This document shows, piece after piece, positions 1 to 52,308 of a stretch of 64,000 nucleotides of DNA. The notes below the pieces were generated by a model. It was not told the DNA's origin. It did no database searches and worked only from the letters and a program-made list of their open reading frames with translations. Source of the stretch: an uncultured Planctomycetia bacterium (GTDB taxonomy: Bacteria; Omnitrophota; Gorgyraeia; 2-02-FULL-51-18). Location of the stretch: positions 2,717-66,716 of the forward strand of contig CAZXLF010000002.1 in NCBI GenBank assembly GCA_964642015.1, given 5' to 3'. The translations under genes were made by a program, and so were the position numbers. The first letter of the stretch is position 1; every line of letters begins with the position of its first letter.

Positions 1-895
1 TTGATCGGTTTCTTTGTCCCCTGTCCAAAAGCGCAATAGCTCTATAAAGAGACGGAGGATAGAATTGATTTAGACGGGAAACGGCCCCGATACCTTCTAT
101 CTTAGGGCAAAAAGGTTCAGAAGACAAAAGCTTCGCACCTTTTTTTAAAAGCCGGTCATCTGAATTGGCGACTAATGTCATCGAACTCAGTTGATGCTTC
201 CACTTTTTGAAGAAGCGTACGCGGTTTTTTAAAAGATAATCTGCGTCCCCAAAACGATATAAATGATGATGAACGACCCGTATCCTACCATTATAAATAA
301 TTTGGTATCCTGCAAGCCTGGCTCGGACACAATAGTCAATGTCCTCATACTGACATGGAAAATATCTTTCATCGAAAGGACCGATTTTTTTTATTGCGTC
401 GCGGCGCATCAGCCAGCATGGTCCTGGTAGCGCATCACACTCGCGAATATAATCTCTTTGCCCTTGATCCCTTTCATATTTACCGACCATACCGAACGGC
501 TCAAATTTAAACTCAGCTGAGAATATGAGGCCATTGGGCCAGACGACTTTGCCGCCTACAATACCTATCTGAGGGTTCAGTTGCGCGCACTGAAGCAACT
601 TTTCAAGCCATTGGGGTGTTACTTCAATATCATCGTCTAATAAAGCGACCCAGGGGTTTCTACCGGCAAACAGCGCTTTATTCGCTGCTCCTGAAAAACC
701 CAGATTTTTGGGAAGCAGCAGTAAGGAGTCTATGGAATTTCGTTGTTTACGCAGAGATTCGCGTGTGCCATCCGTGCTATGGTTATCGATGATCGTTAAC
801 GTGTAAGGAACTGATCGGGTGTGTTCACGGATAGATCTTAAGCATCGTAAGATCTTTGCACGCGCATTATAGGTGACTATGATAATGTCAACCAT
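1..895 (-). CDS. GT2 glycosyltransferase paralog, partial at the window edge. The 5' ~545 nt are identical to gene 3226..4320; the 3' part has diverged.
   Basis: Minus-strand ATG at 895..893 (MVDIIIVTYNA...). Region 348..895 is nucleotide-identical to 3773..4320; upstream, 181..347 is only ~70% similar to 3601..3784. The ORF runs off the window start. Confidence 0.55.
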   Translation of the reverse strand, partial: MVDIIIVTYNARAKILRCLRSIREHTRSVPYTLTIIDNHSTDGTRESLRKQRNSIDSLLLLPKNLGFSGAANKALFAGRNPWVALLDDDIEVTPQWLEKLLQCAQLNPQIGIVGGKVVWPNGLIFSAEFKFEPFGMVGKYERDQGQRDYIRECDALPGPCWLMRRDAIKKIGPFDERYFPCQYEDIDYCVRARLAGYQIIYNGRIRVVHHHLYRFGDADYLLKNRVRFFKKWKHQLSSMTLVANSDDRLLKKGAKLLSSEPFCPKIEGIGAVSRLNQFYPPSLYRAIALLDRGQRNRS

Positions 896-1302
896 CCATT
901 CAACCTTATCTTATTCTTATTTTGTGAATCTTTGGTATACTGACGAATAGACGCTCAAAGAATATCATTTTCAGAGTAAATAGTACACTGGGACTATGGA
1001 AGAATAAAAATGAGAGCGGCTGCAGAAGTGTGCGTTGTTTTGTGCCGATCTATGGGCGCAGTAGGCATTATGGTATACGTTATTTTAACGTCAATTCTTA
1101 TTTAACATCTTTTTTAATCAACCCACTTTTTATCCTTTATTTGGCCATTTTGAATAAATTCAATTCGATGCATCAGGATGGAAGACAGGTTCTATTTTTT
1201 TAGACAACGATCGGATTGATGAATTACCGGATCAAATCGGATCGGCATAGAGAACAACTAGCGTTGGGCATACGGAGAAACGGGTATTCAGACGTTCCAT
1301 GA

Positions 1303-2526
1303 TCAGCAAAAAATCGTTCTTAAAGCATGGACAGCTTTTTCGTTATTCCTTTTAGCATATTCATATGCTTGAAGAGATAGTTGTTTGGCAAGATCGTGGT
1401 CATCTAAAACATCCAATACTTTATTTGCGAAGTCTCTGGGCGATCTGGAAATAAGAAAAGCCTTGGCTGCTCCGTTTTCCATACCCCTCGCTCCTATTGG
1501 CGTCGTAACGAGAGGTTTAGAATGACTTAGAGCCGTCAGATTTTTCGTACTTGACCCAGTCGCAAAAACCTCCGCATTGATCACGACATCCGAGTTGCCA
1601 TAAATTTTTTCAAGATTTTTCAAAGGACCTATCTTGAAGCAAGGACTTTTCACTTTGCTGATGAGGGGGCACACTTTTCCGGCAATAATAAATTGGGCTT
1701 TTGGATTTTTAACCCTGATCAATGGAAATATATCGTGCATAAAAAATTCCACGCTCTTTCTACTGCTTTGCGTATCGCCTCCGATAAAAAGAATATTGTG
1801 ACGGGAAGTTCTTTTTATGACAGGAGCGTATAACGGGAGCCAATGTCTCACTGTGACTACTCGTTTGGCGGTCAGTTTTGAAAAATAAGCTTTATCATCA
1901 TCCTGAATGGCCATAACGATATCCGCTCTGTCGAGCGCTTTCTTTTCTTGGCTTGTTTTCAGAGAAGCAGTGTTCAGTGGAAAAATACCATGAGCTAAGA
2001 GTTTTTTATTTCTATCGGCAAACACATCGATGGTATCTAGCAGTTTGAGGATATTGGGTCCAAAACATTCCAAAGATCGTGAAGTGACGGCGTATTCCGC
2101 TATTACGGCATCGGGCCTTATAGATTTAGAAAACGAATGGAGAAATCTATCCAGACGGGTATCATACCAGTCATCCAGATGCTTTAATTCGCCGCTGATC
2201 GTTTTAGAGAGCCTGTCCGGATGCTTGATATTATAAAACTCTTCAAAATCAGGCATATAAAATCCACTTTTCCAGCATCGCTTCATTTCAGAAATATCAT
2301 CATCTTTTCTTTGGTTTTTGGCTCTCAAGTAAACAAAATGGACCTGATGTCTCAATCTTTGCAACGTTTTAAGCAAATAATAGATTCGTATTCGATTGCC
2401 AGCGTTTTGCGGATGCGTGGCGATCGGAGAAATCACCAGTATTTTTTTTGTTTTGCTGTTAGAACGCATAGCGGCAGATCGATGAACTAGCCTGGTGTAA
2501 TGGTAAAATTTTGTAGAAGATGTCAC
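1303..2526 (-). CDS. GT-B fold glycosyltransferase, GT4-like
   Basis: 407-aa ORF with N-terminal 'KILVISPIATHPQNAGNRIR' and C-terminal 'FIIAGK...GSSTK...PLVTTPIGARG', typical GT4/GT1 architecture. Confidence 0.45.
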   Translation of the reverse strand: MTSSTKFYHYTRLVHRSAAMRSNSKTKKILVISPIATHPQNAGNRIRIYYLLKTLQRLRHQVHFVYLRAKNQRKDDDISEMKRCWKSGFYMPDFEEFYNIKHPDRLSKTISGELKHLDDWYDTRLDRFLHSFSKSIRPDAVIAEYAVTSRSLECFGPNILKLLDTIDVFADRNKKLLAHGIFPLNTASLKTSQEKKALDRADIVMAIQDDDKAYFSKLTAKRVVTVRHWLPLYAPVIKRTSRHNILFIGGDTQSSRKSVEFFMHDIFPLIRVKNPKAQFIIAGKVCPLISKVKSPCFKIGPLKNLEKIYGNSDVVINAEVFATGSSTKNLTALSHSKPLVTTPIGARGMENGAAKAFLISRSPRDFANKVLDVLDDHDLAKQLSLQAYEYAKRNNEKAVHALRTIFC

Positions 2527-2598
2527 TCAAAGGCGGAAAGGATTCAAGCAAGTAAAAATCGCAATAACAGGGAAGAAGGCGCGGGTGAAAAAAGCGGA

Positions 2599-2994
2599 TT
2601 AACTACCGACCCCGATCTCGTGAAGCTGCTCGTATCTTTTCATGGTCGGTTTTTTATATAAAGCTTTGCCTTTTTTCATGGGCTCTTTGTTGTTATGCTG
2701 AGGTTTCGACTCGGCCATATCTTGGCTTTTTTCGATCAAACTTTGGCTTTCCATTTCCTTCAATAAATTTCTAACGTCCTTTTGACAGGTAGAAAAGTCT
2801 ACATTGTATTCTTCTATGATTTTCGATATTATTTGATCGAATCCTTTTTGATCGACAATCATTTTCCATATGTATCCGCTGATCTTATCGAATACAAAGT
2901 AGAAACCTCTCTCCATATTTAGTACGACCGTTTGGTCTTCAACCTTCTTCCAGGAAATCTTGTCTTTATCTACGAAATATTTTGTATGAGCCAT
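2599..2994 (-). CDS. PqqD-family protein (RiPP recognition element-like) with a Lys-rich C-terminal tail
   Basis: 'VVLNMERGFYFVFDKISGYIWKMI...DVRNLLKEMESQSLI' follows the PqqD pattern (LN-x-t-a-x-iW...DV-x-x-FL-x-x-L-x-x-x-gli). Confidence 0.5.
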   Translation of the reverse strand: MAHTKYFVDKDKISWKKVEDQTVVLNMERGFYFVFDKISGYIWKMIVDQKGFDQIISKIIEEYNVDFSTCQKDVRNLLKEMESQSLIEKSQDMAESKPQHNNKEPMKKGKALYKKPTMKRYEQLHEIGVGS

Positions 2995-3225
2995 ATCTTT
3001 GCCCTCGTTTTTGTATAGATGATGTTGACCCGTAAATCACCATATTTCAAAGTATAATAGTTTTTATAGAAACTTACAAGCCTAGCTTAGGGTCACCCTG
3101 CTGTCAGTCTCTGTAAAAAATAAGCTTCAGTTTCTCAGAATGTTCTCGTCAGGAATATGGCGTATATTGCTATAAGGCTCAAAACTATAAAAGAGGACAT
3201 CTTTTGAAGGGATAAATCCTGGAAT

Positions 3226-4320
3226 TTACGCTCGGTCAGCGATTTTTTTCATAATCGTTTTTGGAGTTAAGTATTTTAGAAAATTCCGAGCCTCATGCTG
3301 GGCACTCCTCAGCATCCCAGCTCTGCGGAAATAAATGCATAGAAGGTGGTTGATGTTGGCACGTTCTCCTTTCGTGATACCTGTGTTTTTTTTGAGCCAA
3401 CGCGAAGTGTGTGTTAATTCTGTTATTGCTTGTCTTTTTTGTCCCGCATGAAGATGCACGATGGCGCGGTACAGCGATAACGGGTAGTATTCGCTTAATC
3501 GCGAAACACCGGCGACGCCGGGCGTGCGAGGACAGAAGGGCTCTGTCGAAAGAAGCTTGGCGCCTTTTTTTAAAATGCGGTCATCCGGACGTGTGATCAA
3601 CGTCATTGGGCCCAGCAGGCGTTCCCATTTTCTGAAAAAAAACTCGGCGTTTTTTATCAGATCGCGGTTTTTGCCAAAACGATAAAGATGATGATGGATA
3701 ATTTGAACTCGACCGTTATAATAGATCTTATAGCCTGCCCGACGCACTCGAATACAATAATCAATGTCCTCATATTGGTTTGGAAAATATCTTTCATCGA
3801 AAGGACCGATTTTTTTTATTGCGTCGCGGCGCATCAGCCAGCATGGTCCTGGTAGCGCATCACACTCGCGAATATAATCTCTTTGCCCTTGATCCCTTTC
3901 ATATTTACCGACCATACCGAACGGCTCAAATTTAAACTCAGCTGAGAATATGAGGCCATTGGGCCAGACGACTTTGCCGCCTACAATACCTATCTGAGGG
4001 TTCAGTTGCGCGCACTGAAGCAACTTTTCAAGCCATTGGGGTGTTACTTCAATATCATCGTCTAATAAAGCGACCCAGGGGTTTCTACCGGCAAACAGCG
4101 CTTTATTCGCTGCTCCTGAAAAACCCAGATTTTTGGGAAGCAGCAGTAAGGAGTCTATGGAATTTCGTTGTTTACGCAGAGATTCGCGTGTGCCATCCGT
4201 GCTATGGTTATCGATGATCGTTAACGTGTAAGGAACTGATCGGGTGTGTTCACGGATAGATCTTAAGCATCGTAAGATCTTTGCACGCGCATTATAGGTG
4301 ACTATGATAATGTCAACCAT
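3226..4320 (-). CDS. Family 2 glycosyltransferase
   Basis: 364 aa. 'IIIVTYNARAKILRCLRSI...TLTIIDNHSTDGT' and 'ALLDDDIEV' (DxD) mark a GT-A fold GT2. Confidence 0.75.
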   Translation of the reverse strand: MVDIIIVTYNARAKILRCLRSIREHTRSVPYTLTIIDNHSTDGTRESLRKQRNSIDSLLLLPKNLGFSGAANKALFAGRNPWVALLDDDIEVTPQWLEKLLQCAQLNPQIGIVGGKVVWPNGLIFSAEFKFEPFGMVGKYERDQGQRDYIRECDALPGPCWLMRRDAIKKIGPFDERYFPNQYEDIDYCIRVRRAGYKIYYNGRVQIIHHHLYRFGKNRDLIKNAEFFFRKWERLLGPMTLITRPDDRILKKGAKLLSTEPFCPRTPGVAGVSRLSEYYPLSLYRAIVHLHAGQKRQAITELTHTSRWLKKNTGITKGERANINHLLCIYFRRAGMLRSAQHEARNFLKYLTPKTIMKKIADRA

Positions 4321-4420
4321 CCATTCAACCTTATCTTATTCTTATTTTGTGAATCTTTGGTATACTGACGAATAGACGCTCAAAGAATATCATTTTCAGA
4401 GTAAATAGTACACTGGGACT

Positions 4421-5572
4421 ATGGAAGAACATAGAAAAGAAAAGCTTTTTCTGTTGAATTGCCTGTTGGAGTTAGCGCAGCCGGATCGTTTCGATACCCA
4501 GTCTTCCGCAGATCTTGATTGGGACTGGATCTTCCATTTTGCTTTTTATAATCGTGTGCTGGGTTTTGTCGGTTCTGTGCTCGAGAAAAAAAAGATCTTG
4601 GAAACATTAGGCAAAGAAGGGCGCTATAAGATCTTTTTCGCGATTCAAAGCGATTTACGGAATAATGAGATCAGACGCTCCGAATTCATTGAGCTAAGTT
4701 CGATGCTAAATGTTCATTCGATTTCCGTGATTCCATTGAAAGGCATCGCACTGTCCTACCTGGTTTACGACAAACTTCCTTGCAGACAGATGGTGGATCT
4801 GGACATTTTAGTGCAAAAGGAAGACGTTGAGCGTGTGCTGAAGATATTGGTCGAAAATGAGTTTGATCCGAACAAAGGGCGCACAAGGAACCGTTGGCAT
4901 GATGAAATGAATAAAGATCGAGTTATCTCTCATGCATTGGCATTGCAGGCGAATAGCTTGGGACGATTTGCGATGAGTAACGGAAGATATCAAGTAGACG
5001 TTCATTATGATCCTATTTATGCCAAGGTGAAAATGGATTTAGAACGTGTTTGGAAGCGGTCAACGGCGTATCCATCGATCTCTCCTAACGTACGCATGCT
5101 TGACCCTGTGGATCAATTTTTTCATGTACTTATTCATACCGCTCATTCTCCGTCGATCCGGGGGCTTTTAGACTTGCTCATGATGATGTCAAAATACAGA
5201 CTGGATCCGTCCCAGATAGCGGCGGATAAGGATGCCTCCAATATTCATTGGAAAAAATCGGAAAACCTTTTAAGATCCGTGTTGCAATTGCTCGATGTAG
5301 CAGATGCAGATCATCTTCCAGACCATCTCCTAAATAATTTGGACATCTTTTTTGAGATGACCCAAACAAATGATATGAGCTCAACTCCTGATCTCGGACG
5401 GTTGCGCCGGATCAGGTCGGTTAAGGATTTTTTTCTTTATTTTCTTGGTTACATTGTTCCGAACCCTTATTTTTATAATCGACGCAAAGGGCGCTGGGCG
5501 ATGTACAAGCAGCATTGGAAATCTTTGTATTTCAGGTTTTGCGCGCTTTTTCTAAAAAAAGCCAAGAAATAA
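4421..5572 (+). CDS. Nucleotidyltransferase family protein, PF14907-like; paralog of 10261..11358 and 59317..60285
   Basis: 'ISVIPLKGIALSYLVYDKLPCRQMVDLDILVQKEDVERV' matches the shared PLKG...R-x-M-x-D-(L/I/V)-D-(L/I/V)-(L/I/V) motif of the other two copies. Confidence 0.55.
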   Translation: MEEHRKEKLFLLNCLLELAQPDRFDTQSSADLDWDWIFHFAFYNRVLGFVGSVLEKKKILETLGKEGRYKIFFAIQSDLRNNEIRRSEFIELSSMLNVHSISVIPLKGIALSYLVYDKLPCRQMVDLDILVQKEDVERVLKILVENEFDPNKGRTRNRWHDEMNKDRVISHALALQANSLGRFAMSNGRYQVDVHYDPIYAKVKMDLERVWKRSTAYPSISPNVRMLDPVDQFFHVLIHTAHSPSIRGLLDLLMMMSKYRLDPSQIAADKDASNIHWKKSENLLRSVLQLLDVADADHLPDHLLNNLDIFFEMTQTNDMSSTPDLGRLRRIRSVKDFFLYFLGYIVPNPYFYNRRKGRWAMYKQHWKSLYFRFCALFLKKAKK

Positions 5573-5639
5573 AACTTACGGATTGAGCGAGAGCCGTTAT
5601 TCAGTACGTAAAAAATTGTGGCGGGTCAAAGTTCTTTGC

Positions 5640-5938
5640 TTTTTTACGATCAATGGACGCTTTGACGATCTTGAGAGCGTGCGGCTTTAATTTTTCGCTC
5701 ACATTTTCCCAATTTTTTTCATTCAATTTTTTTCCAGATTTCTGACAAACAAGGGAAGAAGAACATAAGAGTTTTGTTCAAATTTATTTTCCATTTCCAA
5801 TGAAGATGATGGGCGGGAATAGAGTTCCCAGTCTCTGAATGCGTTTTCGCCCGTCAAAAGCGACGCCCGGAAAAGATATTTTTGCTTTGCAGTAAAGCGT
5901 TGGTTTAAAGGAAAGATTGCTGTTTTGCATAAATCCAA
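5640..5938 (-). pseudogene. Deletion scar: the N-terminal 71 aa of a nucleotidyltransferase paralog joined to the C-terminal remnant of a GT2 gene
   Basis: ORF 5723..5938 (MDLCKTAIFPLNQRF...LLPLFVRNLEKN) is ~55% identical to the N-terminus of 10261..11358. The reverse complement of 5590..5700 translates to '..HALKIVKASIDRKKAKNFD', matching the C-terminus 'NVLKIVKASIDRKKSKEL*' of GT2 7235..7954 with a 1-nt frameshift. Confidence 0.6.
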
Positions 5939-7017
5939 TAATATTTATACTAACAAGCAAAGCATATATCAGATACTGTTTTATTTTGAATAGGATGATA
6001 TCATGTTGCCAAAGGGCTTATCTTATGTCGGAAGTTGATGAGAGCGTTATCGCGGGCAAGGACAGGCTGCAGCTTAATTTTCTTTATCTGACCGAGCTCT
6101 TAGCAAATCATTTGAAGATCGGACGCAGGTATCATGATGGCATCCGGAAGAAATTTGAAGCGGCATTTTACGAGCGTTTATTGTCGGCCGGTACAACCGT
6201 GAATCCCCCCGCTCTTCCCGTAGACCGTGTTCGGAAAATATCAGCTGTTGATTTCGCGAATAGCTACCTAAAAAAATACAAACCTGTGGTACTGGAGGGT
6301 TTTTGTGGCTCCTGGCCGGCGTCGAAGAAGTGGAATTTTGACTATTTACTGAATAACTATGGAAATATCCGCATACAGGTCCCTAATAGCTCTGAGAGCG
6401 TAACATTAAGTTCGATCTTGGAATCGATCTTGAATGGATCGGAGCCGCGTTATGTTAATTTTTTACCGCTACTTTTTGCGGCGTCCGACATGAAATCCTC
6501 GGTCGATTATAATGAATTTAAAAGGATCGCAGGACTGCCTGACAAAACCATATTTGTTTCAAAACCCTATATCGGTCAAAAGACATATAAATGCAGCGTT
6601 CACAATGATATTAGCCACAATTTTTTGACGCAATTTCAAGGAGAGAAGACCGTGACACTTTTTCCGCTTTCGCAGACCCCTTTTCTTTATTCCAAGGCGG
6701 AGTGTCCGGCGCCCAGCACTTTTTCCATCCGGACGAGATTTGATAAAGGCACATTACTGGATTCGGAGTTCGAAGCGTTTCCGCTGGCGCGTTTTGCTCA
6801 GCCATTTCAAACCAAACTTTTCCCGGGCGATATCCTTTTTATACCCGCTTTTACTTGGCATCAAGTCTATTACGATACACCGACGATTGGTCTGGGGAAT
6901 TGGTGGGTGGATTTTAAAGATAATTTCCGGATCAGTCCGCTTTTTACTTTGATGAGCCTGCCCCGCTACATTGAGGGCTACCGAATGTATCGCCGTGATT
7001 CTTTTAATACAAAGTGA
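5917..7017 (+). CDS. Cupin-like / JmjC-domain protein, putative 2-oxoglutarate/Fe-dependent hydroxylase; the true start may be the ATG at 6025
   Basis: 'KYKPVVLEGFCGSWPASKKWNFDYLLNNYGNIRIQV' is the typical N-terminal block of cupin_8/JmjC proteins. His/Asp candidates lie in 'CSVHNDISHNF' and 'FTWHQVYY'. Confidence 0.45.
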   Translation: MLFCINPIIFILTSKAYIRYCFILNRMISCCQRAYLMSEVDESVIAGKDRLQLNFLYLTELLANHLKIGRRYHDGIRKKFEAAFYERLLSAGTTVNPPALPVDRVRKISAVDFANSYLKKYKPVVLEGFCGSWPASKKWNFDYLLNNYGNIRIQVPNSSESVTLSSILESILNGSEPRYVNFLPLLFAASDMKSSVDYNEFKRIAGLPDKTIFVSKPYIGQKTYKCSVHNDISHNFLTQFQGEKTVTLFPLSQTPFLYSKAECPAPSTFSIRTRFDKGTLLDSEFEAFPLARFAQPFQTKLFPGDILFIPAFTWHQVYYDTPTIGLGNWWVDFKDNFRISPLFTLMSLPRYIEGYRMYRRDSFNTK

Positions 7018-7128
7018 TTTGATATATCTTTTGAATTATTTTCAGATCCGTATTTTTATCTTTTGATCAAACGTAAAGAGATATTTTTATATTAGGCTTG
7101 AGTTTTTGTTTAATTGACGCTCTTGGGA

Positions 7129-7292
7129 AATCTTTGTATTTCAGGTTTTGCGCGCTTTTTCTAAAAAAAGCCAAGAAATAAAACTTACGGATTGAGCGAG
7201 AGCTGTTATTCAGTACGTAAAAAATTGTGGCGGGTCAAAGTTCTTTGCTTTTTTTGCGGTCAATTGACGCTTTGACGATCTTGAGAACATTT
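7129..7292. repeat. ~165-bp near-identical copy of 5516..5690: convergent gene ends of an NTase (+) and a GT2 (-) plus the intergenic spacer
   Basis: Direct comparison: 'gaaatctttgtatttcaggttttgcgcgctttttctaaaaaaagccaagaaataaaacttacggattgagcgagag...' is present at both sites. Confidence 0.8.
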
Positions 7293-7954
7293 TGTACCGT
7301 CCAGCGCGAATCATTCATTAAATGAGACAGGTTGGAATCATGGATGCGGCGAAGCGTAAGCTTATCGGGAAGAATAGCCATTGGAACGGAAGCTTCCCTC
7401 GCGCGTAAGAACCAATCAGTGTCATCTCCCATTTTAAAAGAAATATTGAAATCGCCTATTTTTTCAAATACCGACCTTCGAGACATCAGTGCACTCGGTA
7501 TGAACGACGCGGCATTGATGTCAGCCATATTTCTTTTAGTTTTTTCATCGAGCCATGATGGGATATCGGAGCCCGTTTCGATAAAATTCTTGATATGGCA
7601 TAGCACAAGTCCTTTATCGGGATTTGCCAAAAGATAATTGACCTGAAGGCGCGTTTTTTGGGGAAGCCACATATCATCCGAATCCAGGAACGAAATAAAT
7701 TCTCCCTTAGATTCCCGAAGCCCTAAATTGCGTGCTTGTGCCGGACCGATCCCTTGATGAGCCTGATAAAAATACCTGACTTTTTTGAAAGAACGGACGA
7801 CCTCGGCTGTTCGATCCGTTGAGCCGTCGTCAACAACGATAACTTCTAACGCTTCATAATCCTGTTTAAACACGCTTTTAAGAGCATCTTGAATGAATTT
7901 TTCGCGATTGTGGACAGGAATGATAACGCTTACTAGCGGTTGGCCGTTGTTCAT
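7235..7954 (-). CDS. Family 2 glycosyltransferase
   Basis: 'LVSVIIPVHNREKFIQDALKSVFKQDYEALEVIVVDDGSTDRT' and 'DSDDMW'. Confidence 0.75.
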   Translation of the reverse strand: MNNGQPLVSVIIPVHNREKFIQDALKSVFKQDYEALEVIVVDDGSTDRTAEVVRSFKKVRYFYQAHQGIGPAQARNLGLRESKGEFISFLDSDDMWLPQKTRLQVNYLLANPDKGLVLCHIKNFIETGSDIPSWLDEKTKRNMADINAASFIPSALMSRRSVFEKIGDFNISFKMGDDTDWFLRAREASVPMAILPDKLTLRRIHDSNLSHLMNDSRWTVQNVLKIVKASIDRKKSKEL

Positions 7955-7960
7955 TTGTGC

Positions 7961-9028
7961 CTACAGTCTGCCTAGCAGTTTCTCAATGCTATTTGGTATT
8001 TCGGTTAAAAGTTTGCCTGTATTCAGGCGGTAACAAGGCAATGACTTGATGATCTTTTTCAAACGCTCGAATTCAGTGGCACCCGAGTCGGGCAGTTGAA
8101 GCAAAGTGTTCGGGGCGACGGCCGAAATCGCTGAGATCGGCGAGATCTCTTCAACTGTTGTGTTTTCATTTTGCGTGTAGTGAGCGATCGTCACGGCTTT
8201 TAACGGAAACCGGTCGATCATTTTATTTTTGAAATGTTGATGCAGAAAGAATAATGATTTTTCGTCTTCCTGCCATTTCGGATCTGTAACAGCCGATATT
8301 CCGATATCAGGAAATTTATGTACGAATTGTTTGAGGAGTTTGGCGGAACTGTAAAGCGGAGAGGCGAAAGGAATATCGTTGTTGAAATAAACGTCAACAA
8401 AATCATCGGCCATCAAACTGAGCGCCGATGAGAGACAGGAAAGGGCTGTGGTTGATTTGCCCGAGCCTGATTTTCCTGCTATCAAGATGCCTCCTGACCG
8501 GTTGCCCACGGCAGCTGCGTGGACTATTTGATGCCCTTTGCTTCTAAGCCACCAGTGAAAAACTGTTTTTAAAGGAGAAGCGATCTCATACAGAGGGATT
8601 GCATTTGGATCTTTTATAAATACAAAAGCTGTTTTTTCGCGGGAATCGACAAAATAAAAATAGTTGGAGCTGCGCAGTCCGATCAGATCTTTACCTTTAA
8701 GGTAGGCGTCGTTCTCCGATATGGACTCCGGCGGTTCGATTTCGGTCGACCCGTCCCATAGATGGAACGTGAATTCGGCCCTGTCAAAAGGTTTGACTTC
8801 GGCGTGCGCGAGCGCAGCCGAAAAAAACGATTTTAAATTTGGACCTGCCGATCTAAAGATCAAATTCTGTCCGGCTATCGTGTAGTAGTATCGCTGTGCG
8901 CCCGATCTTTCAACTGCTTTCTCGAATTGCCGGCGGAAAACTTCCGTCAAAGAATTACTTGGGATTTTGATCGTGTCCAAGATCGGGATTTGGTTTGCGG
9001 TTAGGCCAGCCTTTATCGTCCACATCAT
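7961..9028 (-). CDS. HprK-related P-loop kinase, similar to the HPr kinase C-terminal domain
   Basis: 'GGILIAGKSGSGKSTTAL' resembles the HprK catalytic P-loop (GxLIxGxSGxGKSxxAL). It lies beside a PqqD-family gene and an NTase, as does the paralog 54890..55783. Confidence 0.5.
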   Translation of the reverse strand: MMWTIKAGLTANQIPILDTIKIPSNSLTEVFRRQFEKAVERSGAQRYYYTIAGQNLIFRSAGPNLKSFFSAALAHAEVKPFDRAEFTFHLWDGSTEIEPPESISENDAYLKGKDLIGLRSSNYFYFVDSREKTAFVFIKDPNAIPLYEIASPLKTVFHWWLRSKGHQIVHAAAVGNRSGGILIAGKSGSGKSTTALSCLSSALSLMADDFVDVYFNNDIPFASPLYSSAKLLKQFVHKFPDIGISAVTDPKWQEDEKSLFFLHQHFKNKMIDRFPLKAVTIAHYTQNENTTVEEISPISAISAVAPNTLLQLPDSGATEFERLKKIIKSLPCYRLNTGKLLTEIPNSIEKLLGRL

Positions 9029-9410
9029 GAATGGGGTCGGCTTGGAAGAAGTCTTGCATGTCCGTGTATTTGTGCATCACGGGCGTTTGGAATTTCGCGT
9101 TACGAAGCTCAGCGGGAATATTTTTTTTGGAGGACTCCGTGGAAGGAGAGGGGTCGGCCGTGATCAGCTCTTCTTTTTTAAGCTCATCAAGGAATTTGTT
9201 TACCGCGCCGCTGATTTGGCTCGATTCCGAATGGGTTTCTTTGGAAATGATCTCAATGATTTCATTTTCGGAACTGCCTTGGGAGATGAGATGCCATATC
9301 GCAGCGCCTGTTTTTTCGAGATTATAATAAAATCCGGCTCCCAAATGAATGATTACAGCCTCGCCGTCGATAAGTTCATGAACTACCATGGGTTGAATTT
9401 TAAAATGCAT
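8955..9410 (-). CDS. PqqD-family protein (RRE-like) with a C-terminal extension
   Basis: 'VVHELIDGEAVIIHLGAGFYYNLEKTGAAIWHLISQGSSENEIIEIIS...VNKFLDELKKEELI'. Confidence 0.6.
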   Translation of the reverse strand: MHFKIQPMVVHELIDGEAVIIHLGAGFYYNLEKTGAAIWHLISQGSSENEIIEIISKETHSESSQISGAVNKFLDELKKEELITADPSPSTESSKKNIPAELRNAKFQTPVMHKYTDMQDFFQADPIHDVDDKGWPNRKPNPDLGHDQNPK

Positions 9411-10260: not shown

Positions 10261-11358
10261 TTAATTAGGCGTTTTCTTTTTTAGAAGTTTATTCACCGCT
10301 GCCATGGGTAATTTCCACCATTTTTTTACATGCCATCGGTACATCAGATAAACGCGGAATCCCGATATTTTGGTAAACCAATTTTCAGATCGCATGCCGC
10401 GGTAAAATTGAGACCAAATATCCAGAGCTTTTCTAAATCTAGATCGACCGTTGCCGATAAAAGGAGAAGTATTTAATACCAAGCAGACACGCTCATCGAT
10501 GGATATTTCCAGCGCATCGAGTTCTTTCAAGACCGTTTTAGGAGCAGAGGTTCCGAGCGTTTCCATTAAATAATGAAGGCCGATGCGTAAAGCCAGACAA
10601 CGGTTTTGCCGTTTTGATCTTTCGATCACTGTGTTCCAATCAACCGGAAAGGCAGTGCTATTGACCAGCACGAACATATCCGAGACCCAACGAAGATTCC
10701 ACGCTTTCGGCTCCTGCATGAAGTGTAAAAGATCTGTTGGGCTGAGCGCCGGTACACTGATATCGTCCAAAGAAACGGCGATGGCATTTTCCCAATTTTT
10801 TTCATTGGCGAACCAATGCACGTCAATTCTTGCACCTTCTTTGTTTTCGAACTCTTTGGCGAATGAATAATCACTCACGCGGTTCCATCCGGACTCTTCC
10901 AATATCCTCAAAGCATCGTTCAGATTTTCGGGTTTGACGATAATATCCACGTCTTTCATATAACGGACACCCATGTCGCAATAGTGAGTCGTCGCTATAG
11001 ATGCTCCTTTGAAGATCATGACTTTTATGCCGCATTCGTTCATTTTTTTGATCGCCGATGCAGCCGAATGCAAAAGGATCTGATTTTTCGTCCATGTATG
11101 GCGGTAAACACCACGGTATTTGGCTGGAAGCAGTTCGCTGCGCCCATGTTTTTCCAGATTTCGAAAGAACAAAGGCAGAAGGGTATATGCTGCTTGTTCG
11201 AATTCTGCTTCTATCTCTTGCGGAGACAGTGGGCGAGAGAATTGTTCCCAACTTTTGAGAGCTTCATCGCCCTGCAGAAGGGACGCGCGTAAAAGCTGTT
11301 CATGTTCCGCCGTGAAGAGTTTTTTTAAAGGATAAATTTCGGTTTTTGTTTTTTTCAT
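10261..11358 (-). CDS. Nucleotidyltransferase family protein, PF14907-like
   Basis: 'CGIKVMIFKGASIATTHYCDMGVRYMKDVDIIVKPENLNDALRIL' is paralogous to 4421..5572 and 59317..60285. Confidence 0.55.
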   Translation of the reverse strand: MKKTKTEIYPLKKLFTAEHEQLLRASLLQGDEALKSWEQFSRPLSPQEIEAEFEQAAYTLLPLFFRNLEKHGRSELLPAKYRGVYRHTWTKNQILLHSAASAIKKMNECGIKVMIFKGASIATTHYCDMGVRYMKDVDIIVKPENLNDALRILEESGWNRVSDYSFAKEFENKEGARIDVHWFANEKNWENAIAVSLDDISVPALSPTDLLHFMQEPKAWNLRWVSDMFVLVNSTAFPVDWNTVIERSKRQNRCLALRIGLHYLMETLGTSAPKTVLKELDALEISIDERVCLVLNTSPFIGNGRSRFRKALDIWSQFYRGMRSENWFTKISGFRVYLMYRWHVKKWWKLPMAAVNKLLKKKTPN

Positions 11359-11555
11359 GACATCTTTTCAATATGCTAACAAACGCGCCGCAAGAACGCA
11401 AAACCTTCGCTTTTTTCATTAATGCCGAAAAACTTTATCAGACTGACGAATTTGGTATTAAATATAAGACCGGATATGGTCTGTAAATTTATTTAGATCC
11501 GCCGAGCCCTAAAAGGGTCTTCCCAGCCTCTAGGATCTCATGGTAACATAAAAAA

Positions 11556-13031: not shown

Positions 13032-14171
13032 TTAAGATTTGTCGGCAAAAAGCAAAGGAAGCGAAACGCTTCTCACGGAAGGATCGGCAAATCGAAATAT
13101 CGCTCTATCGATAACGAAATGCATATAAACCGAAGCTGAATTAAAGGCGATGAAAAAGCTTGCTATCCATGGAATAGAGAACGCAGGTTGTAGTAAGGAA
13201 AATAAGATAGGCAAGTTTTTGAACCTATTGGGATTGAACGCAGAATAGATCAGGGGTGTCAGAAAAATGGACACCGCGCACAAGACGAGAACTGTGAGCC
13301 AGAAACGCCGGCTTATGCCACCGATCCATTTGTACCATAGCGAAACCGATTGAGTGTTGCTCCTGTCATTTTGGGCCATGTGGGCGGCGAGGGCTACCGA
13401 AACGATCCAATGTTGGGCTATCCAAAGTATGAAAAAAGATAATGGCTGCAGGAAATAAGCAAGCACGCCCTGAGCCGAAAGGCCTGTCACATAAAGTATT
13501 TTCGGCAGTGAGATCTTTTTAGATCTAAATTCAAAGATGTAAAAAATAACGGTCAGACAAATGATCGAAACCGGCGCGATAATTTTTAGGAAATGAAATA
13601 GAGCGGTAAACGATGTTTGGGGCCACCATCGGTATAAAATGGAATCTTTTACAACTTTTGCGCCGTGCCCCACTTGAGCCAAAGCGACAAGTACGGATCC
13701 TACGGCCAGGCAGAATAATTTTTCGTACTTTTTGAAACCACCGCTCAAATCCTGGCGTGATCGCATGCGATAAATGCTGATAACTCCATAATGCTGAATT
13801 CCTACATGAAAAGTATTATAGAGAAAAAAGATAGTGGCTAATATCTGAGCCTTGACCATTAAACCCAAAGGGATCACGGATAGCGGCATGAATACAAAAG
13901 CGAAGACCGCAAGAAAAATAGCGATCGGCAACAGAACAAAACGCGGATATTGCCGGAGCAAAAGTGGCCGATAAGCCGGATTGCAGAAAGCGTTAAACGA
14001 AGTCGCGAAGCGGTGAGCGATTCCCAGAATTAAAGTAAGGATGATAAAAATTAATCTAAGAATTCTCGGCGCGGAATTATAAACGGCCAATATAACCAAT
14101 AGCCATATTCCTGATAGCATCCAAAATCCATCCCAATAAGCCGACCTTAGCCAGGGATTGGGGTTTTTCAT
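13032..14171 (-). CDS. Polytopic integral membrane protein, possibly a Wzy/O-antigen-polymerase-like or ligase-like protein
   Basis: 379 aa with ≥9 hydrophobic helices and no soluble domain. It sits in a glycosyltransferase neighbourhood. Confidence 0.3.
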   Translation of the reverse strand: MKNPNPWLRSAYWDGFWMLSGIWLLVILAVYNSAPRILRLIFIILTLILGIAHRFATSFNAFCNPAYRPLLLRQYPRFVLLPIAIFLAVFAFVFMPLSVIPLGLMVKAQILATIFFLYNTFHVGIQHYGVISIYRMRSRQDLSGGFKKYEKLFCLAVGSVLVALAQVGHGAKVVKDSILYRWWPQTSFTALFHFLKIIAPVSIICLTVIFYIFEFRSKKISLPKILYVTGLSAQGVLAYFLQPLSFFILWIAQHWIVSVALAAHMAQNDRSNTQSVSLWYKWIGGISRRFWLTVLVLCAVSIFLTPLIYSAFNPNRFKNLPILFSLLQPAFSIPWIASFFIAFNSASVYMHFVIDRAIFRFADPSVRSVSLPLLFADKS

Positions 14172-15160: not shown

Positions 15161-15261
15161 CTTTTCCATATAAATTGATATGATTCTGCTGTCAACGGAT
15201 CTAAAGAAGTAAGTTTCGAATTTAGTTTGAGTTTTTGTTTAATTGACGCTCTTGGTCGGGC

Positions 15262-15345
15262 AGGATAGAATACGTTTTTTCTATGGTGGGCGCCTGCCTG
15301 CCGGCAGGCAGGTAGCTCAGCTGGGTTAGAGCGTCTGACTGTGGC
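15262..15345 (+). repeat. Composite repeat: a conserved leader, a 22-bp perfect palindrome, and a truncated 5' copy of tRNA-His that ends in the anticodon loop
   Basis: 'caggatagaatacgtttttctatggtgggcgcctgcctgccggcaggcaggtagctcagctgggttagagcgtctgactgtggctc'. Compare the intact tRNA-His at 22998 and the second copy at 20628. Confidence 0.7.
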
Positions 15346-15736
15346 TCTTATCAAGGGCTTTAACACCGTTTCGTTTGGTTTCATTTCTTTTTACAATCCC
15401 TCTACTTAGCGATTTACATGATTTACATGGTGTATGTGACTTAGCTTTGTTTTGGTTGGTGTTTGTCACAATTTTTTCGCATTAAAAATAACCGCGATCA
15501 GAACAACGCGATTCGTTTGAAATAGTTAAACCTCCAGAATATGTAGTCCACGACTATTTAAATTTGACCTCGCAATCAATTGCTTGAAGTCCCAGTTGAA
15601 ACTGTTTTTACTAACTATTTATTATTAAAAGCGATAAGATACTACCCAAATTATGCCGAAAATTTTTAAACGAATATTAAACACCTGCTATATATTATAA
15701 AAAAAAGTACTATAATAATAGGAGAAGGATATCTTT

Positions 15737-20471: not shown

Positions 20472-20627
20472 AAGGAAATTATCTAAAAACCTAAAAAATC
20501 CATTAGTTTAGTGAAAAATATTTTATCGCGACCTTTTAACGTATATGTTATTGATTCATACCCAACCTCAGCTATCCATATAGTGAAATTCTGATCTTTT
20601 TGTTTAATTGAAGTTCTTTGCTGGGCA

Positions 20628-20770
20628 GGATAGAATACGGTTTTTCTATGGTGGGCGCCTGCCTGCCGGCTGGCAGGTAAAGCGTCGGCGGACTTCACAG
20701 CGCGTGTCGATTTTGAAAGAATTTGGTGGGCGTAGCTCAGCTTGGTTTGAGCGTCTGACTGCGGCTCTGC
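20628..20770 (+). repeat. Second composite repeat: leader, palindrome variant, tRNA-His upstream region, and a truncated 5' tRNA-His copy
   Basis: 'gggcaggatagaatacggtttttctatggtgggcgcctgcctgccggctggcagg...aaagcgtcggcggacttcacagcgcgtgtcgattttgaaagaatttggtgggcgtagctcagcttggtttgagcgtctgactgcggctc' is near-identical to 22908..23040 up to the anticodon loop. Confidence 0.7.
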
Positions 20771-21006
20771 CCAGAGCTTTATCACCATTTCATTTAGTTT
20801 GATTTTCATTCACAATCTCTCGAAACACGACTCCGCCATTTACCACCAATTACGTGGTTTGATACACTGTTTGCTACTATAGTGCCACTGGTTTATAACT
20901 TGCAGTTAGCGCAGGGCGAGATGAGGATATACAATAGGAGTTCGATTTGATAAAATCTATTTTCATCAAAATATTTTTTAAGGGGTATATTTGATCTATT
21001 AAATCC

Positions 21007-22624: not shown

Positions 22625-22997
22625 AAAAGATTTATTTATATTCTATCCAGTATTTTTTTTGATGCTGTGAATGAGAGTGACATTTGTCATCCGAATCAGA
22701 GTCAGACGACGCTCTAAAGACTGTTTTATATTTTACCGTAACTCGTTCTAAACTCAGAAAGAGAATGCGTTAAGTAGTTTGGTCTAACTCTCGCCTAACA
22801 CAATAAGCCCCACCAAATAGGTAATTGACCTTCAAAGGCAAAATCAATAGAATACCAATGCTACCCGAACACTTTTTTCAACATTCTTTTTTAGTTTAGG
22901 TTTTTTGGTGGGCGCCTGCCTGCCGGCAGGCAGGCAGTTCAGCCCGCCACTAAAGCGTCGGCGGACTTCGCAGCGCGTGTCGATTTTGAAAGAATTT

Positions 22998-23076
22998 GGT
23001 GGGCGTAGCTCAGCTTGGTTAGAGCGTCTGACTGTGGCTCAGAAGGTCGCGAGTTCAAATCTCGTCGCCCACCCCA
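22998..23076 (+). tRNA. tRNA-His (GUG) with encoded G-1 and CCA
   Basis: Cloverleaf read by hand. Acceptor gtgggcg/cgcccac, extra 5' G opposite discriminator C, anticodon loop 'ctGTGgc', T-arm gcgagttcaaatctcgt, 3' CCA. Confidence 0.85.
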
Positions 23077-25707: not shown

Positions 25708-26487
25708 ATGGTAGAGACTGACCCAAAAAAAGATCTGTTAACCGACGAATCAGAAAAAACCAAAATATTGTGGTTTTTGGGCCTGTTATCAATTTGCACG
25801 ACACCGATCTTTATCTATGGATATTCCAAATGGGGGGCGCCGGCTGCGAGCTTCGCCGTCCTTTTGTCGGTACCGTTTTTTTTACTCAATTATATTATAT
25901 GGCGTATTTTTCATTCTTCGGCTTTTGCCGGTAATTTTATCATTGCGATAGGTTATTTTTTATTTTTGGCCATCTCTATCTATACCGGAGGTGTGGATTC
26001 ACCGGCAATCATATGGACAGTCGCTATACCCATGGTCGCGACGACTATTTGCGGTCTAAGATCGGGATTTGTCTGGTTTGTGCTGGTGGTTCTAAAGATC
26101 GGTATTTTAGAATGGATGGATTTTCACGGGAACCATTTTATACATGAGATCCCCGAAGGAAGGGAGTTAGATATAGCTTTTTGCGTTAATACGATAGCGG
26201 TCGTATTTTTTACTTTTTTTATTTCCGCAAGTTCCGAATTTTATAAAGAAAAATATCTTAAGAGGATCAGAGAAAGCAATGAACAGCTCCAAAAAGCGTT
26301 GGATAGCATCCGCACTTTAAAAGGCCTTTTGCCGATCTGCGCCTGGTGTAAAAAGATCCGCAATGACAAGGGTTATTGGGACAAATTGGAAACGTATGTG
26401 TCCGCGAATACGGAAGCCGAATTCACGCATGGCATTTGCCCTGAGTGTTTGTCCAAGCAGATAAAGAAAGTTAATCCTGCGCTGTGA
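25708..26487 (+). CDS. Membrane sensor protein: a 6–7 TM N-terminal domain and a C-terminal Cys-rich zinc-ribbon-like motif
   Basis: Hydrophobic helices, then 'LKGLLPICAWCKKIRNDKGYWDKLETYVSANTEAEFTHGICPEC'. Confidence 0.4.
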   Translation: MVETDPKKDLLTDESEKTKILWFLGLLSICTTPIFIYGYSKWGAPAASFAVLLSVPFFLLNYIIWRIFHSSAFAGNFIIAIGYFLFLAISIYTGGVDSPAIIWTVAIPMVATTICGLRSGFVWFVLVVLKIGILEWMDFHGNHFIHEIPEGRELDIAFCVNTIAVVFFTFFISASSEFYKEKYLKRIRESNEQLQKALDSIRTLKGLLPICAWCKKIRNDKGYWDKLETYVSANTEAEFTHGICPECLSKQIKKVNPAL

Positions 26488-29758: not shown

Positions 29759-30115
29759 ATGATGTCTAAACAGGCGATAGAAGAAAAGAGATCGTCTCGT
29801 AGAGCCAGTTGCCAAGCTTATTCTCAATTCAAAAACCTGGACTCTAAAATCCCGTCAGCCTATAATGAAACCTTTATAAGTGACATATCTGAAGGTGGTT
29901 TGCGCTTTCGTTCCCCCCAATTTATTCCGGTACATCATCGGTTATCGCTGAAAATTGATATTCCCAAAGCTCCTAGTATCGAAGTTATCGCAAAACCTGC
30001 CTGGATCAAAGAGCTCCCGAACCTCGAGCAATACGATGTCGGCGTACAATTTCTTACGCTGTCAGACACCGATAAATTTCTTCTTAAAAAATTCTTCGGC
30101 GTTTCCGCGATCTAA
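29759..30115 (+). CDS. PilZ-domain protein (c-di-GMP receptor-like)
   Basis: 'RRSSRRASCQ' (RxxxR) and 'DISEGGLRF' (DxSxGG). Confidence 0.55.
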   Translation: MMSKQAIEEKRSSRRASCQAYSQFKNLDSKIPSAYNETFISDISEGGLRFRSPQFIPVHHRLSLKIDIPKAPSIEVIAKPAWIKELPNLEQYDVGVQFLTLSDTDKFLLKKFFGVSAI

Positions 30116-30161
30116 ACCGCCGGTCAATCCATTATTAAATGTCGGCCTCGTTTTATCGATC

Positions 30162-30941
30162 ATGCTAAGTATGATTTTAACTCCAAGTGTGACTCAGGCG
30201 GACGAAGCCCCTAAAGAATTGCCGGGCGGATGGCGGCTTGTGTGGCATGACGAATTTAACGGTGGTCAGCTGGATACTTCAAAATGGACGGCCGGAGATC
30301 TAGCTCTCAATACCGGCACAGTCGAATACTACACGCCCGAAGATATTTATGTACACGATGGTGTTTTAACGATTCGCAGCCAAAAACGTCCCATGGGAGG
30401 ACGCCAGTATACCTCAGGATTGGTGTCAACTTACGGTAAATTCGCAATAACCTACGGTCGATTCGAGATATGCACGAGACTTTCCAAGGGCCAGGGTATT
30501 TTGTCGGCACAAACGCTTATGCCCATTAATAAAAGTGGAAGTTGGTCTCCTCAGATCGATATTGCGGAACTTCTTGGTCATGAACCCAATAAGATCCATA
30601 TGCTGCACCAGTATGGCACCGTTGATAAACACAAACATTATGGCGGCGTCTATGTAGGTCCCGATTTTTCAAATGATTTCCACATTTTTGCGGTGGAATG
30701 GGAACCGGACGAGATAAGGTGGTATGTCGATGGGGCCATGCGTTTTTCGACTAAGGACAACATCCCACATATGCCTATGAATATTATTTTAATTACAGAG
30801 GTGGGCGGTGAATGGGCAGGTTCTCCGACAAAAAAGACCGTGTTTCCTCAATACCATGACATTGATTATGTGCGTGTGTACGCCAAAGCCAACACTAATA
30901 TTGAGATCGCGGGTTCCAAAATCTCTAAAAATGCTATATAA
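30162..30941 (+). CDS. Glycoside hydrolase family 16 (beta-glucanase/laminarinase-like), secreted
   Basis: 'GGWRLVWHDEFNG' and the catalytic 'SWSPQIDIAELLGH' (ExDxxE). An in-frame ATG at 30162 precedes a signal-like 'MLSMILTPSVTQA'. Confidence 0.65.
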   Translation: MLSMILTPSVTQADEAPKELPGGWRLVWHDEFNGGQLDTSKWTAGDLALNTGTVEYYTPEDIYVHDGVLTIRSQKRPMGGRQYTSGLVSTYGKFAITYGRFEICTRLSKGQGILSAQTLMPINKSGSWSPQIDIAELLGHEPNKIHMLHQYGTVDKHKHYGGVYVGPDFSNDFHIFAVEWEPDEIRWYVDGAMRFSTKDNIPHMPMNIILITEVGGEWAGSPTKKTVFPQYHDIDYVRVYAKANTNIEIAGSKISKNAI

Positions 30942-30987
30942 AAAAGATAAAATGAATGATAACCTATGCAATTACTATACTGCTCAA

Positions 30988-31803
30988 ATGCCGATTTTTA
31001 AATATAGGGTCCAAAGGTTGCTTGTTCCCGTGATGATATTGTGTTGTTTATCATTTTCCGATGCCGTCAAAGCGGATGTTCCGAAAGAGCTCGCCGGAGG
31101 ATGGCGGCTTGTGTGGCATGACGAATTTGATGGAAATAAGTTGGATAGCTCAAAGTGGGTCGCTGAAGACGCGGCGCTTGAGAAAAATAATGAGGGCGAA
31201 TATTATACGCCGGAAGACGTTTCCGTTCATGATGGGTTTCTGACTCTGCGCAGCGAAAAACGTGATATGGGCGGCCGTCATTATACGTCAGGTTTGGTTG
31301 AGACTCGCGGTAAGTTTGCAAGAGTTTATGGCCGCTTCGAGATCCGCGCCAAATTACCGAAAGGTCAAGGCATCTGGCCGGCACATTGGTTGATGCCGGA
31401 TGATGATAGTTGGCCGCCTGAGATCGACATCATGGAGCTTATCGGGCACTATCCGAATAGGATCTATATGACGAATCATTTCACGAGCGCTGAAGGCGGG
31501 CCCACGTGGCACGGCGACAGTTTTACGGGTTCGGATTTTTCCAAGGATTTCCATGTTTTTGCGGTGGAGTGGGAACCGGATGAAATAAGATGGTACATTG
31601 ACGGCGTTGAGAGATTCTCGACGAAAGAAAATATCCCCAATGTCCCTATGAGGATCATTTTAAATACCGCCGTGGGAGGTGATTGGCCGGGTTATCCCAC
31701 AAAGAAGACAGTTTTCCCGCAATTTCATGACATTGATTATGTGCGTGTGTACGCCAAGATCAATACCAGCATCGAATTTGCCGATCCCAAAGACTCTGCC
31801 TAA
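30988..31803 (+). CDS. Glycoside hydrolase family 16, tandem paralog
   Basis: 'GGWRLVWHDEFDG' and 'WPPEIDIMELIGH'. A signal peptide 'MPIFKYRVQRLLVPVMILCCLSFSDAVKA' starts at the in-frame ATG at 30988. Confidence 0.65.
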   Translation: MPIFKYRVQRLLVPVMILCCLSFSDAVKADVPKELAGGWRLVWHDEFDGNKLDSSKWVAEDAALEKNNEGEYYTPEDVSVHDGFLTLRSEKRDMGGRHYTSGLVETRGKFARVYGRFEIRAKLPKGQGIWPAHWLMPDDDSWPPEIDIMELIGHYPNRIYMTNHFTSAEGGPTWHGDSFTGSDFSKDFHVFAVEWEPDEIRWYIDGVERFSTKENIPNVPMRIILNTAVGGDWPGYPTKKTVFPQFHDIDYVRVYAKINTSIEFADPKDSA

Positions 31804-51288: not shown

Positions 51289-52308
51289 ATGATTGCAGGC
51301 TATCAAAAAACCGTGAATAAAAAAATCAACTCATTAAATATTTCTATTTTTTTTGGGATCTTTTTTTTATGCGCTACAGTTAGCTACAGCATTGTTTATT
51401 CAAATATTCAGAATTTTTCTTTGTCTCCGGCAATGGGAAATCTGGACACGCAAATTTACCTATCAATGTACAAAGGAGAACCCGTCCAGCGCTATGAAGG
51501 ACGCCGCGTCTTAGTCCCTTTTTTGGCACGGTCCTTGCCTGATTTTCCGCCGTCTTTTTTTGCTAAAGACCACGAATTATCCGGATCATGGACGGCAATA
51601 GTAAAATTCGGAGTCGTTAATTATTTTTTTCTCACAGCCGCGGGAATAGTATTTTTTTACTACTTAAAACAGGCTAAGTTCTCAAATTGGGAATCTGTCG
51701 CCGGATGCCTTTTATTTTATTCGGCAAGGCCTGTGGTCCAGAATGCGGGCCTACCTTTGCCCGATGCGGCTTCGTATTTTTTCTTGGCGATCTGTTTTTA
51801 TTCTATTCAAGTCGAAAATAGATGGCTGCTTTTTGTTGGTTTTTTATTGGGCATTTTTGCGAAAGAATCTGTTTTTTTGGTGATCCCAGCGCTTCTTTTT
51901 TCAGAACATAAGCTTAGATCGAAAATGCTATATGTGCTTATCCCCGGGATTGTAACTTATTCGATTTGTCATTGCGCCATTGTCTTACCCAGACCCAATC
52001 TAACGAATATGCTTTTAGTTTCAGCGCGCTATTTTATTGATACTTTTACTCACGTGAATAGGCTGATAGATCTTTTTTCGTCATTCGGGTTGCTTTGGTT
52101 GCCGGCGTTTTTTTCATTAACATTTCCTGAATTGCCGATAGAGCACCGTCGATGGAAGTGGTTAATTCCATTTATGCTTGCTGTCATTTTTATTTTCAGC
52201 ATGAATCTTGGGCGGATATTATTTGTCGTATTTCCTGTCGTGATCCCGCTGTCATTATTTGGACTGCGCAGGTTTTTGGCAGAAAAAAGTCATGGCTCAA
52301 CGTCATAA
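51289..52308 (+). CDS. Polytopic membrane protein, hypothetical
   Basis: 339 aa with ~9 hydrophobic helices and no recognisable motif. Confidence 0.3.
   Translation: MIAGYQKTVNKKINSLNISIFFGIFFLCATVSYSIVYSNIQNFSLSPAMGNLDTQIYLSMYKGEPVQRYEGRRVLVPFLARSLPDFPPSFFAKDHELSGSWTAIVKFGVVNYFFLTAAGIVFFYYLKQAKFSNWESVAGCLLFYSARPVVQNAGLPLPDAASYFFLAICFYSIQVENRWLLFVGFLLGIFAKESVFLVIPALLFSEHKLRSKMLYVLIPGIVTYSICHCAIVLPRPNLTNMLLVSARYFIDTFTHVNRLIDLFSSFGLLWLPAFFSLTFPELPIEHRRWKWLIPFMLAVIFIFSMNLGRILFVVFPVVIPLSLFGLRRFLAEKSHGSTS

Follow-up and report, generated by a model that had tools for sequence, protein, structure and literature searches.

At the lgt locus of Neisseria, recombination between tandem glycosyltransferase paralogs produces hybrid genes (lgtA/lgtD and lgtB/lgtE), deletions and an altered glycan. 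Gene conversion between paralogs in Helicobacter pylori generates chimeric genes at babA/babB and at sabA/sabB (PMC3960876), and evolution experiments in Escherichia coli have yielded chimeras from recombination of the paralogs cpsG/manB and icd/icdC, a class of event that standard analyses easily miss (PMC13626634). Here we analyze a 64,000-nucleotide (nt) stretch of contig CAZXLF010000002.1 (positions 2,717 to 66,716; hereafter the window), in which two family-2 glycosyltransferase (GT2) genes, GT2-1 and GT2-2, carry an exact 649-nt direct repeat that reaches into the start of a divergent nucleotidyltransferase (NTase) gene. The repeat was probably made by a very recent, ectopic and non-reciprocal recombination between these two old paralogs. 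The genes and the repeat copies are as follows:

1–895, minus strand: GT2-1, family-2 glycosyltransferase; codons 1–298 lie in the window, and the full protein (P0002) has 365 amino acids (aa); PF00535, E = 6e-24
3226–4320, minus strand: GT2-2, family-2 glycosyltransferase of 364 aa (P0001), with a GT-A domain at about residues 1–240 and a predicted C-terminal helical TPR-like domain at about residues 245–363
356–1004: repeat copy R1, 649 nt, which joins 540 nt from the 5′ end of GT2-1, across the 100-nt divergent intergenic region, to a vestigial ATGGAAGAA; exact match to 3781–4429
3781–4429: repeat copy R2, 649 nt, which likewise joins 540 nt from the 5′ end of GT2-2, across the intergenic region, to the opening 3 codons of the intact NTase gene; supported by the exact match and by Logan contig L032

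The event would resemble babA/babB recombination in H. pylori in being intragenomic, probably RecA-dependent and non-reciprocal, in replacing part of a gene while the rest stays diverged, and in giving a chimera that includes the 5′ or expression-control region. In H. pylori the genes lie at loci far from each other and code for outer-membrane adhesins, whose switching has been shown experimentally, whereas the genes here encode glycosyltransferases 3.4 kb apart in direct orientation, with one non-homologous border and no evidence of recurrence. As with E. coli cpsG/manB, paralogs in or near a polysaccharide locus recombine into hybrids; the E. coli hybrid is a deletion that fuses the two copies, whereas both GT2 copies persist in the window, where the direct repeat could now set up a fusing deletion of the E. 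coli type. Neisseria lgt offers the parallel of tandem glycosyltransferase paralogs that recombine, yet its lipooligosaccharide glycosyltransferases belong to another family, and the host is a cultured pathogen of which many strains can be compared; there is no strain series here. In domain layout the GT2 enzymes are like SunS-type peptide S-glycosyltransferases and OGT, which combine a catalytic glycosyltransferase domain with a helical-repeat or TPR substrate-binding domain, and the GT2 homologs here adjoin PqqD/RRE genes.

Position-by-position comparison at an offset of 3425 revealed that 356–1004 and 3781–4429 form a single unbroken exact match of 649 nt, with the two copies spaced 3425 nt apart in direct orientation; no other exact repeat in the window exceeds 100 nt. 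The tract spans codons 1–180 (540 nt) of both GT2 genes, which are read from the minus strand with ATG at 895 and 4320, then the intergenic region, and finally the ATGGAAGAA of the plus-strand NTase open reading frame (ORF) at 996–1004 and 4421–4429. There are 0 differences across 540 coding and 109 non-coding bases, and because this identity extends to synonymous and intergenic sites it reflects recency, not purifying selection. Were divergence uniform at the substitution level of the flank, a run of 649 identities would arise with a probability of about 1e-133. The earlier sequence-only reading had described a perfect 663-bp repeat at 348–1010 and 3773–4437, made up of the 5′ part of a GT2 gene, its promoter region and the first codons of the divergent NTase gene; the exact repeat and its content are confirmed here, and its limits contract to the 649 nt given above, as positions 348–355 hold 4 mismatches and 1005–1010 are non-homologous. 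Elsewhere in the window, the tandem GH16 paralogs at 29955–30941 and 30808–31803 (~69% nt identity over 670 nt) are an ordinary diverged duplication, in contrast to the perfect GT2 tract.

Identity collapses at codon 181. Across codons 181–298, GT2-1 and GT2-2 differ at 133 of 354 positions and retain 62% nt, 59% aa and 43% third-position identity, so that third-position divergence beside the tract appears near-saturated. The abrupt drop to 62% nt and 43% third-position identity supports recent recombination, and the juxtaposition of 0 differences in 649 nt with near-saturated adjoining third positions upholds the earlier proposal of a very recent gene conversion or duplication; the GT2 parts beyond the repeat are diverged, as had been noted, to 62% nt identity and not the ~70% first estimated. 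Both proteins, P0002 and P0001, are encoded on the same 351,750-bp NCBI contig, and both enzymes have the DxD motif and GT-A fold of glycosyltransferase family 2, with PF00535 scores of 85.3 (GT2-1), 84.6 (GT2-2) and 84.6 bits (P0002) against a gathering cut-off of 23.3. Their C-terminal halves are 57% identical in aa to each other and at most 41% identical to all 69 other homologs retrieved, and the N-terminal half common to both is 54–58% identical to the same homologs. Outside the tract the C-terminal halves are therefore each other's closest relatives, which identifies GT2-1 and GT2-2 as old paralogs duplicated within the lineage. It follows from the recombination evidence that one of the two genes is a historical chimera, as the sequence-only reading had claimed, but the new C-terminal domain that it ascribed to the chimera is not borne out, the C-terminal halves being homologous and the full-length architecture the same in both proteins. 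The event appears instead to have evened out the N-terminal half and promoter region of two old paralogs, with no foreign C-terminus grafted.

We examined the two borders of the tract, which involve the following features:

336–355: left breakpoint zone, with a 14-nt identical patch (336–349 = 3761–3774), then 4 mismatches in 6 nt, then the exact tract (junction alignment)
996–1007, plus strand: vestigial three-codon ORF, ATG GAA GAA TAA (sequence and junction alignment)
1005–1302: non-coding spacer, 298 nt, 39% G+C, the right-hand non-homologous junction partner of R1 (tblastn, self-BLAST, six-frame translation)
4421–5572, plus strand: NTP_transf_5 nucleotidyltransferase (NTase-1), 383 aa, divergent from GT2-2; PF14907, E = 2.7e-33; identical protein on Logan L032

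On the left, the 14-nt patch codes for part of the E184-D185-x-D187-Y188-C189 motif, whose named residues are invariant columns of the family alignment, and this EDxDYC patch is a plausible homologous anchor. On the right, identity stops at 1004 in R1 (site 1) and the TAA stop (1005–1007) starts at the first non-identical base, while in R2 (site 2) ATGGAAGAA opens the 383-aa NTase ORF. The spacer has no homology to the NTase gene or the rest of the window by self-BLAST, and its six-frame translation is stop-rich. Gene conversion is expected to leave diverged homology on both sides of an identical tract; here the left side is homologous (62% nt), and from 1005 and 4430 onward no homology is detectable on the right. 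With a left breakpoint beside a conserved patch and a right one without homology, one homologous and one illegitimate end is the best fit. We propose that GT2-1 and GT2-2, duplicated in the lineage of a host that is probably an Omnitrophota bacterium and each combining a GT-A domain with a C-terminal TPR-like helical domain, recombined very recently and non-reciprocally, a 649-nt stretch of one (divergent promoter region, 5′ untranslated region and codons 1–180) having been copied over its counterpart in the other by gene conversion or by homology-anchored duplicative replacement. Its left end would lie in homologous DNA by the 14-nt patch, its right end would be an illegitimate junction 9 nt into the NTase ORF, and the transfer would have run from site 2 (GT2-2/NTase) to site 1, the most parsimonious direction given that ATGGAAGAA is a working gene start at site 2 only. 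Other recombination scars at the locus support a recombinational origin: the repeat 5517–5676/7126–7286, the NTase 5′ fragment 5723–5938 and a GT2 3′ fragment.

The three-codon ORF may be no more than the place where the copied DNA ends. In the sequence-only reading it marked a nucleotidyltransferase gene truncated by one repeat copy, a wording that does not hold as it stands, given that neither tblastn of the NTases (best E = 1.5) nor six-frame translation detected an NTase remnant in 1005–1302. The wording would be literally correct if a longer segment, running from the GT2 5′ half through the intergenic region and over much or all of the NTase gene, had been copied to site 1 and the NTase then deleted from codon 4, leaving the right border as a deletion scar. 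Such a history accommodates a right border that is abrupt, non-homologous and exactly 9 nt into the ORF, and other genes nearby have been cut short (the NTase 5′ fragment 5723–5938, 57% identical in aa to NTase-2; an NTase-1 3′ fragment at 7126–7181; the GT2 3′ fragment 5601–5680). It cannot be told apart from one event whose right end is illegitimate, requires two recent events where one suffices, and is set against by the missing NTase remnant; we regard it as unlikely.

As an independent check on the assembly we used Logan assemblies of other sequencing runs, which are contigs of a k=31 graph and not reads. Contig L033 (SRR12313480 and one more sample) reproduces 975–3810 of the window at 100%; in it the unique 2776-nt segment 1005–3780 is flanked on either side by exactly 30 nt of repeat sequence. 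This overhang equals k−1 for k=31, so the graph branches at both repeat borders and the reads hold two contexts per border. Contig L032 (SRR12313477) matches 3944–5774 at 100% and crosses the repeat/NTase junction. Contigs L114, L115 and L116 likewise end within a second repeat, of 160 nt, or at its edge, which indicates that such contig ends mark real repeats. It is conceivable that the copies are really one, or merely similar, and were duplicated or homogenized by the assembler or joined from different strains: the source is a metagenome-derived 351,750-bp contig present only in NCBI, and when an assembler merges near-identical repeats and uses one consensus for them, false perfect identity can result. 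Against this, the k=31 assembly joins the 2.8-kb unique segment to the repeat at both ends in two samples, a third run reproduces the repeat/NTase junction, and, with A as left flank, R as repeat, U as unique segment and B as right flank, the edges A>R, R>U, U>R and R>B would leave A-R-U-R-B as the sole path using each edge once. An artefact or strain chimera is thus very unlikely, an assembly artefact being what the sequence-only reading had named as its refutation.

To place the breakpoint in the enzyme, we combined the family alignment with an AlphaFold2 model built from a 40-sequence homolog alignment (predicted local distance difference test score 91.4). The model has a GT-A domain to about residue 240 and an all-helical domain at about 245–363. 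The family profile matches TPR proteins over positions 240–350 and many homologs have Pfam TPR matches, while the window's own GT2 C-terminal domains gave no significant TPR match in Pfam and PDB sequence searches, and the label TPR-like accordingly denotes a predicted kinship drawn from family homology and the all-helical model. The breakpoint at residue 180/181 falls inside the GT-A domain, just ahead of helix 184–194, which bears the invariant residues E184, D185, D187, Y188 and C189 and lies in the diverged part; the invariant D87–D89 (the DxD, here a DDD motif) lies in the identical half. The upstream region and residues 1–180 are now common to both enzymes, which differ in the remainder of the GT-A domain and in the helical domain. 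In GT-A enzymes, general fold anatomy would place most of the nucleotide-sugar site in what is here the identical half, and the remaining acceptor side, with the helical domain, in the diverged part. GT2-1 and GT2-2 would then share regulation and sugar donor and differ in acceptor, and a new acceptor specificity can reasonably be inferred from this anatomy. A promoter and terminator scan found sites no more frequent than in shuffled sequence.

It is very unlikely, too, that selection maintains the tract, either through repeated conversion that keeps an N-terminal and promoter module identical for the sake of a common donor and regulation, or through direct repeats that act as a deletion/amplification switch for the acceptor module beside the NTase gene: the tract border coincides with a structural boundary before the E184/D185 helix and direct repeats bracket several more gene blocks in the first 23 kb, but a single recent event suffices, the ORF Pfam scan found no recombinase nearby, and 113 related loci contain no comparable repeat, a weak point since short-read contigs break at such repeats. 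Transposon-, insertion sequence (IS)- or integrase-mediated duplication is not supported: there is no IS element, integrase or inverted repeat at the borders, and no ORF within the first 25 kb of the window has a transposase or integrase Pfam domain. Two other routes, the integration of a circle in the manner of Campbell and one unequal crossover, were rejected because each would need an additional conversion to leave identical repeats on either side of a unique segment.

Several considerations weigh against recent one-step recombination between the GT2 paralogs. Classical gene conversion needs homology on both sides and the right side has none, so the event may have been one-sided, a homology-facilitated illegitimate joining; alternatively, a longer copy could have been made and its NTase part later deleted. 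The direction of transfer is a matter of parsimony only, and the donor and acceptor assignments draw on the general GT-A fold. The nearest GT2 in the collections searched is 47% identical, too distant for the strain comparison that the sequence-only reading had suggested. Assemblers pop small bubbles, which could have erased a few true differences between the copies, and short-read graphs do not prove the linear order, the presence of precisely two copies or the absence of an admixed deletion variant.

Between the repeat copies lie two genes besides the diverged part of GT2-2:

1303–2469, minus strand: group-1 glycosyltransferase (GT1), 388 aa from ATG 2469 (longest ORF from GTG 2526); PF13692, E = 4e-14; the 388-aa gene is called on Logan L033
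2599–2994, minus strand: PqqD-family (RRE-like) protein, 131 aa, directly downstream of GT2-2; PF05402, E = 5e-15

The first 15 kb of the window contain five GT2 genes, one GT1 gene, two PqqD genes (2599–2994 and 8955–9410), one HprK/ScmC-like gene, two NTP_transf_5 genes and one Cupin_8 gene. PqqD/RRE genes next to modifying enzymes, as seen here, are the arrangement of clusters like those for peptides that are made ribosomally and then modified post-translationally, and GT2 homologs on other contigs have PqqD, ScmC, sulfotransferase-PqqD and GT2-TPR genes as neighbors. This neighborhood hints at a peptide- or protein-directed glycosylation system. No convincing small ORF for a precursor peptide was found near the PqqD gene in 2995–3225 or 1005–1302; a 37-aa ORF at 11373–11486 (plus strand; MLTNAPQERKTFAFFINAEKLYQTDEFGIKYKTGYGL), called on two Logan contigs, lies between NTase-2 and a double-GT2 gene. 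The PqqD protein at 2599–2994 matches the model NF033536 lasso_PqqD_Bac with E = 1.6e-14, under the model cut-off, as are all PqqD matches to lasso models, and the lasso-peptide enzymes (an Asn-synthetase-like cyclase and a transglutaminase-like leader peptidase) are absent among the ORFs in the first 25 kb of the window. Both PqqD proteins, encoded on the minus strand, have C-terminal tails of 45–65 aa past the PqqD domain, with a common short motif that reads KKPTMKRYEQL in one and FQTPVMHKYTDM in the other.

Relatives of the locus are distant. Exact-protein look-ups of GT2-2, GT2-1 (P0002), the 407-aa GT1 ORF and the Cupin_8 ORF found no record. A scan of GTDB species representatives found no related strain; its best relative, 49% identical over 80 residues, belongs to an Omnitrophota metagenome-assembled genome. 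Relatives in the metagenome scan were at most 54% identical, and no GT2 closer than 47% aa identity was found in the genome, metagenome and protein collections searched. Self-BLAST of 113 fetched loci found no comparable perfect repeat, an uninformative negative, given that repeats of this kind interrupt short-read contigs. MetK has its nearest named relatives in Candidatus Omnitrophota (77–79% identity), a name that the GT2 relatives also bear.

The window contains a second direct repeat (5517–5676 and 7126–7286; 160 nt, 97% identity) that includes the last 18 NTase-1 codons, intergenic DNA and a 3′-end fragment of the GT2 gene 7235–7954. It brackets a 1.45-kb block with the Cupin_8 gene (5917–7017), and Logan contigs of three runs end inside it or at its edge. 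Two pseudogene fragments lie here on the minus strand: 5723–5938 encodes 67 N-terminal residues of an NTP_transf_5 protein (identity to NTase-2, 10261–11358, 57%), and 5601–5680 encodes 16 C-terminal residues of a GT2. As a pair they resemble a collapsed copy of the 11358–7235 operon. A 29-nt promoter-like element (GAGTTTTTGTTTAATTGACGCTCTTGG) is exactly shared by 7098–7126 and 15227–15255 and abuts the second copy of the 160-nt repeat, forming a patchwork junction. The tRNA-His gene at 22999–23076 (within 22899–23076) has two upstream partial copies, 15227–15347 and 20597–20821 (80–97% identity), each made up of the promoter-like region and the 5′ half up to the anticodon loop, and one of them has a 20-nt palindrome, CCTGCCTGCCGGCAGGCAGG, within its tRNA-like part. 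These copies bracket a 5.4-kb block (glucose dehydrogenase, cyclase, 6PGD-like and GH15 genes) and a 2.2-kb block (AMP-binding enzyme), neither of which contains an integrase gene. An Rfam search returned tRNAs only, and the ORFs 13032–14171 (minus), 25708–26487 (plus) and 51289–52308 (plus), of 259–379 aa, have no significant Pfam match.

A bolder interpretation, which we consider very improbable, is that the tract reflects recurrent repeat-mediated module shuffling in an uncharacterized Omnitrophota peptide or protein glycosylation system of PqqD, HprK-like, NTP_transf_5 and GT2-TPR proteins. A promoter and donor-binding half would be recombined onto alternative TPR-like acceptor halves, deletion and amplification would make the population heterogeneous in its acceptor module, and the same process would have given rise to the other repeat-bracketed blocks in the first 23 kb. 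Recombination between old GT2 paralogs, as preferred here, has more modest consequences. Bacterial paralogs are well known to undergo gene conversion and to form chimeras, and the GT2 tract is a further instance, real, recent, neatly delimited and unsurprising, that raises no new biological question. Through perfect 649-nt direct repeats, the 2.8-kb GT1-PqqD-GT2 segment would be open to RecA-type deletion or amplification, which would make the locus structurally unstable, and for annotation and assembly the region calls for long reads. The locus is a clean natural case of partial homogenization of tandem glycosyltransferase paralogs, and its breakpoint just before the E184/D185 helix shows where a GT-A enzyme tolerates a module swap.

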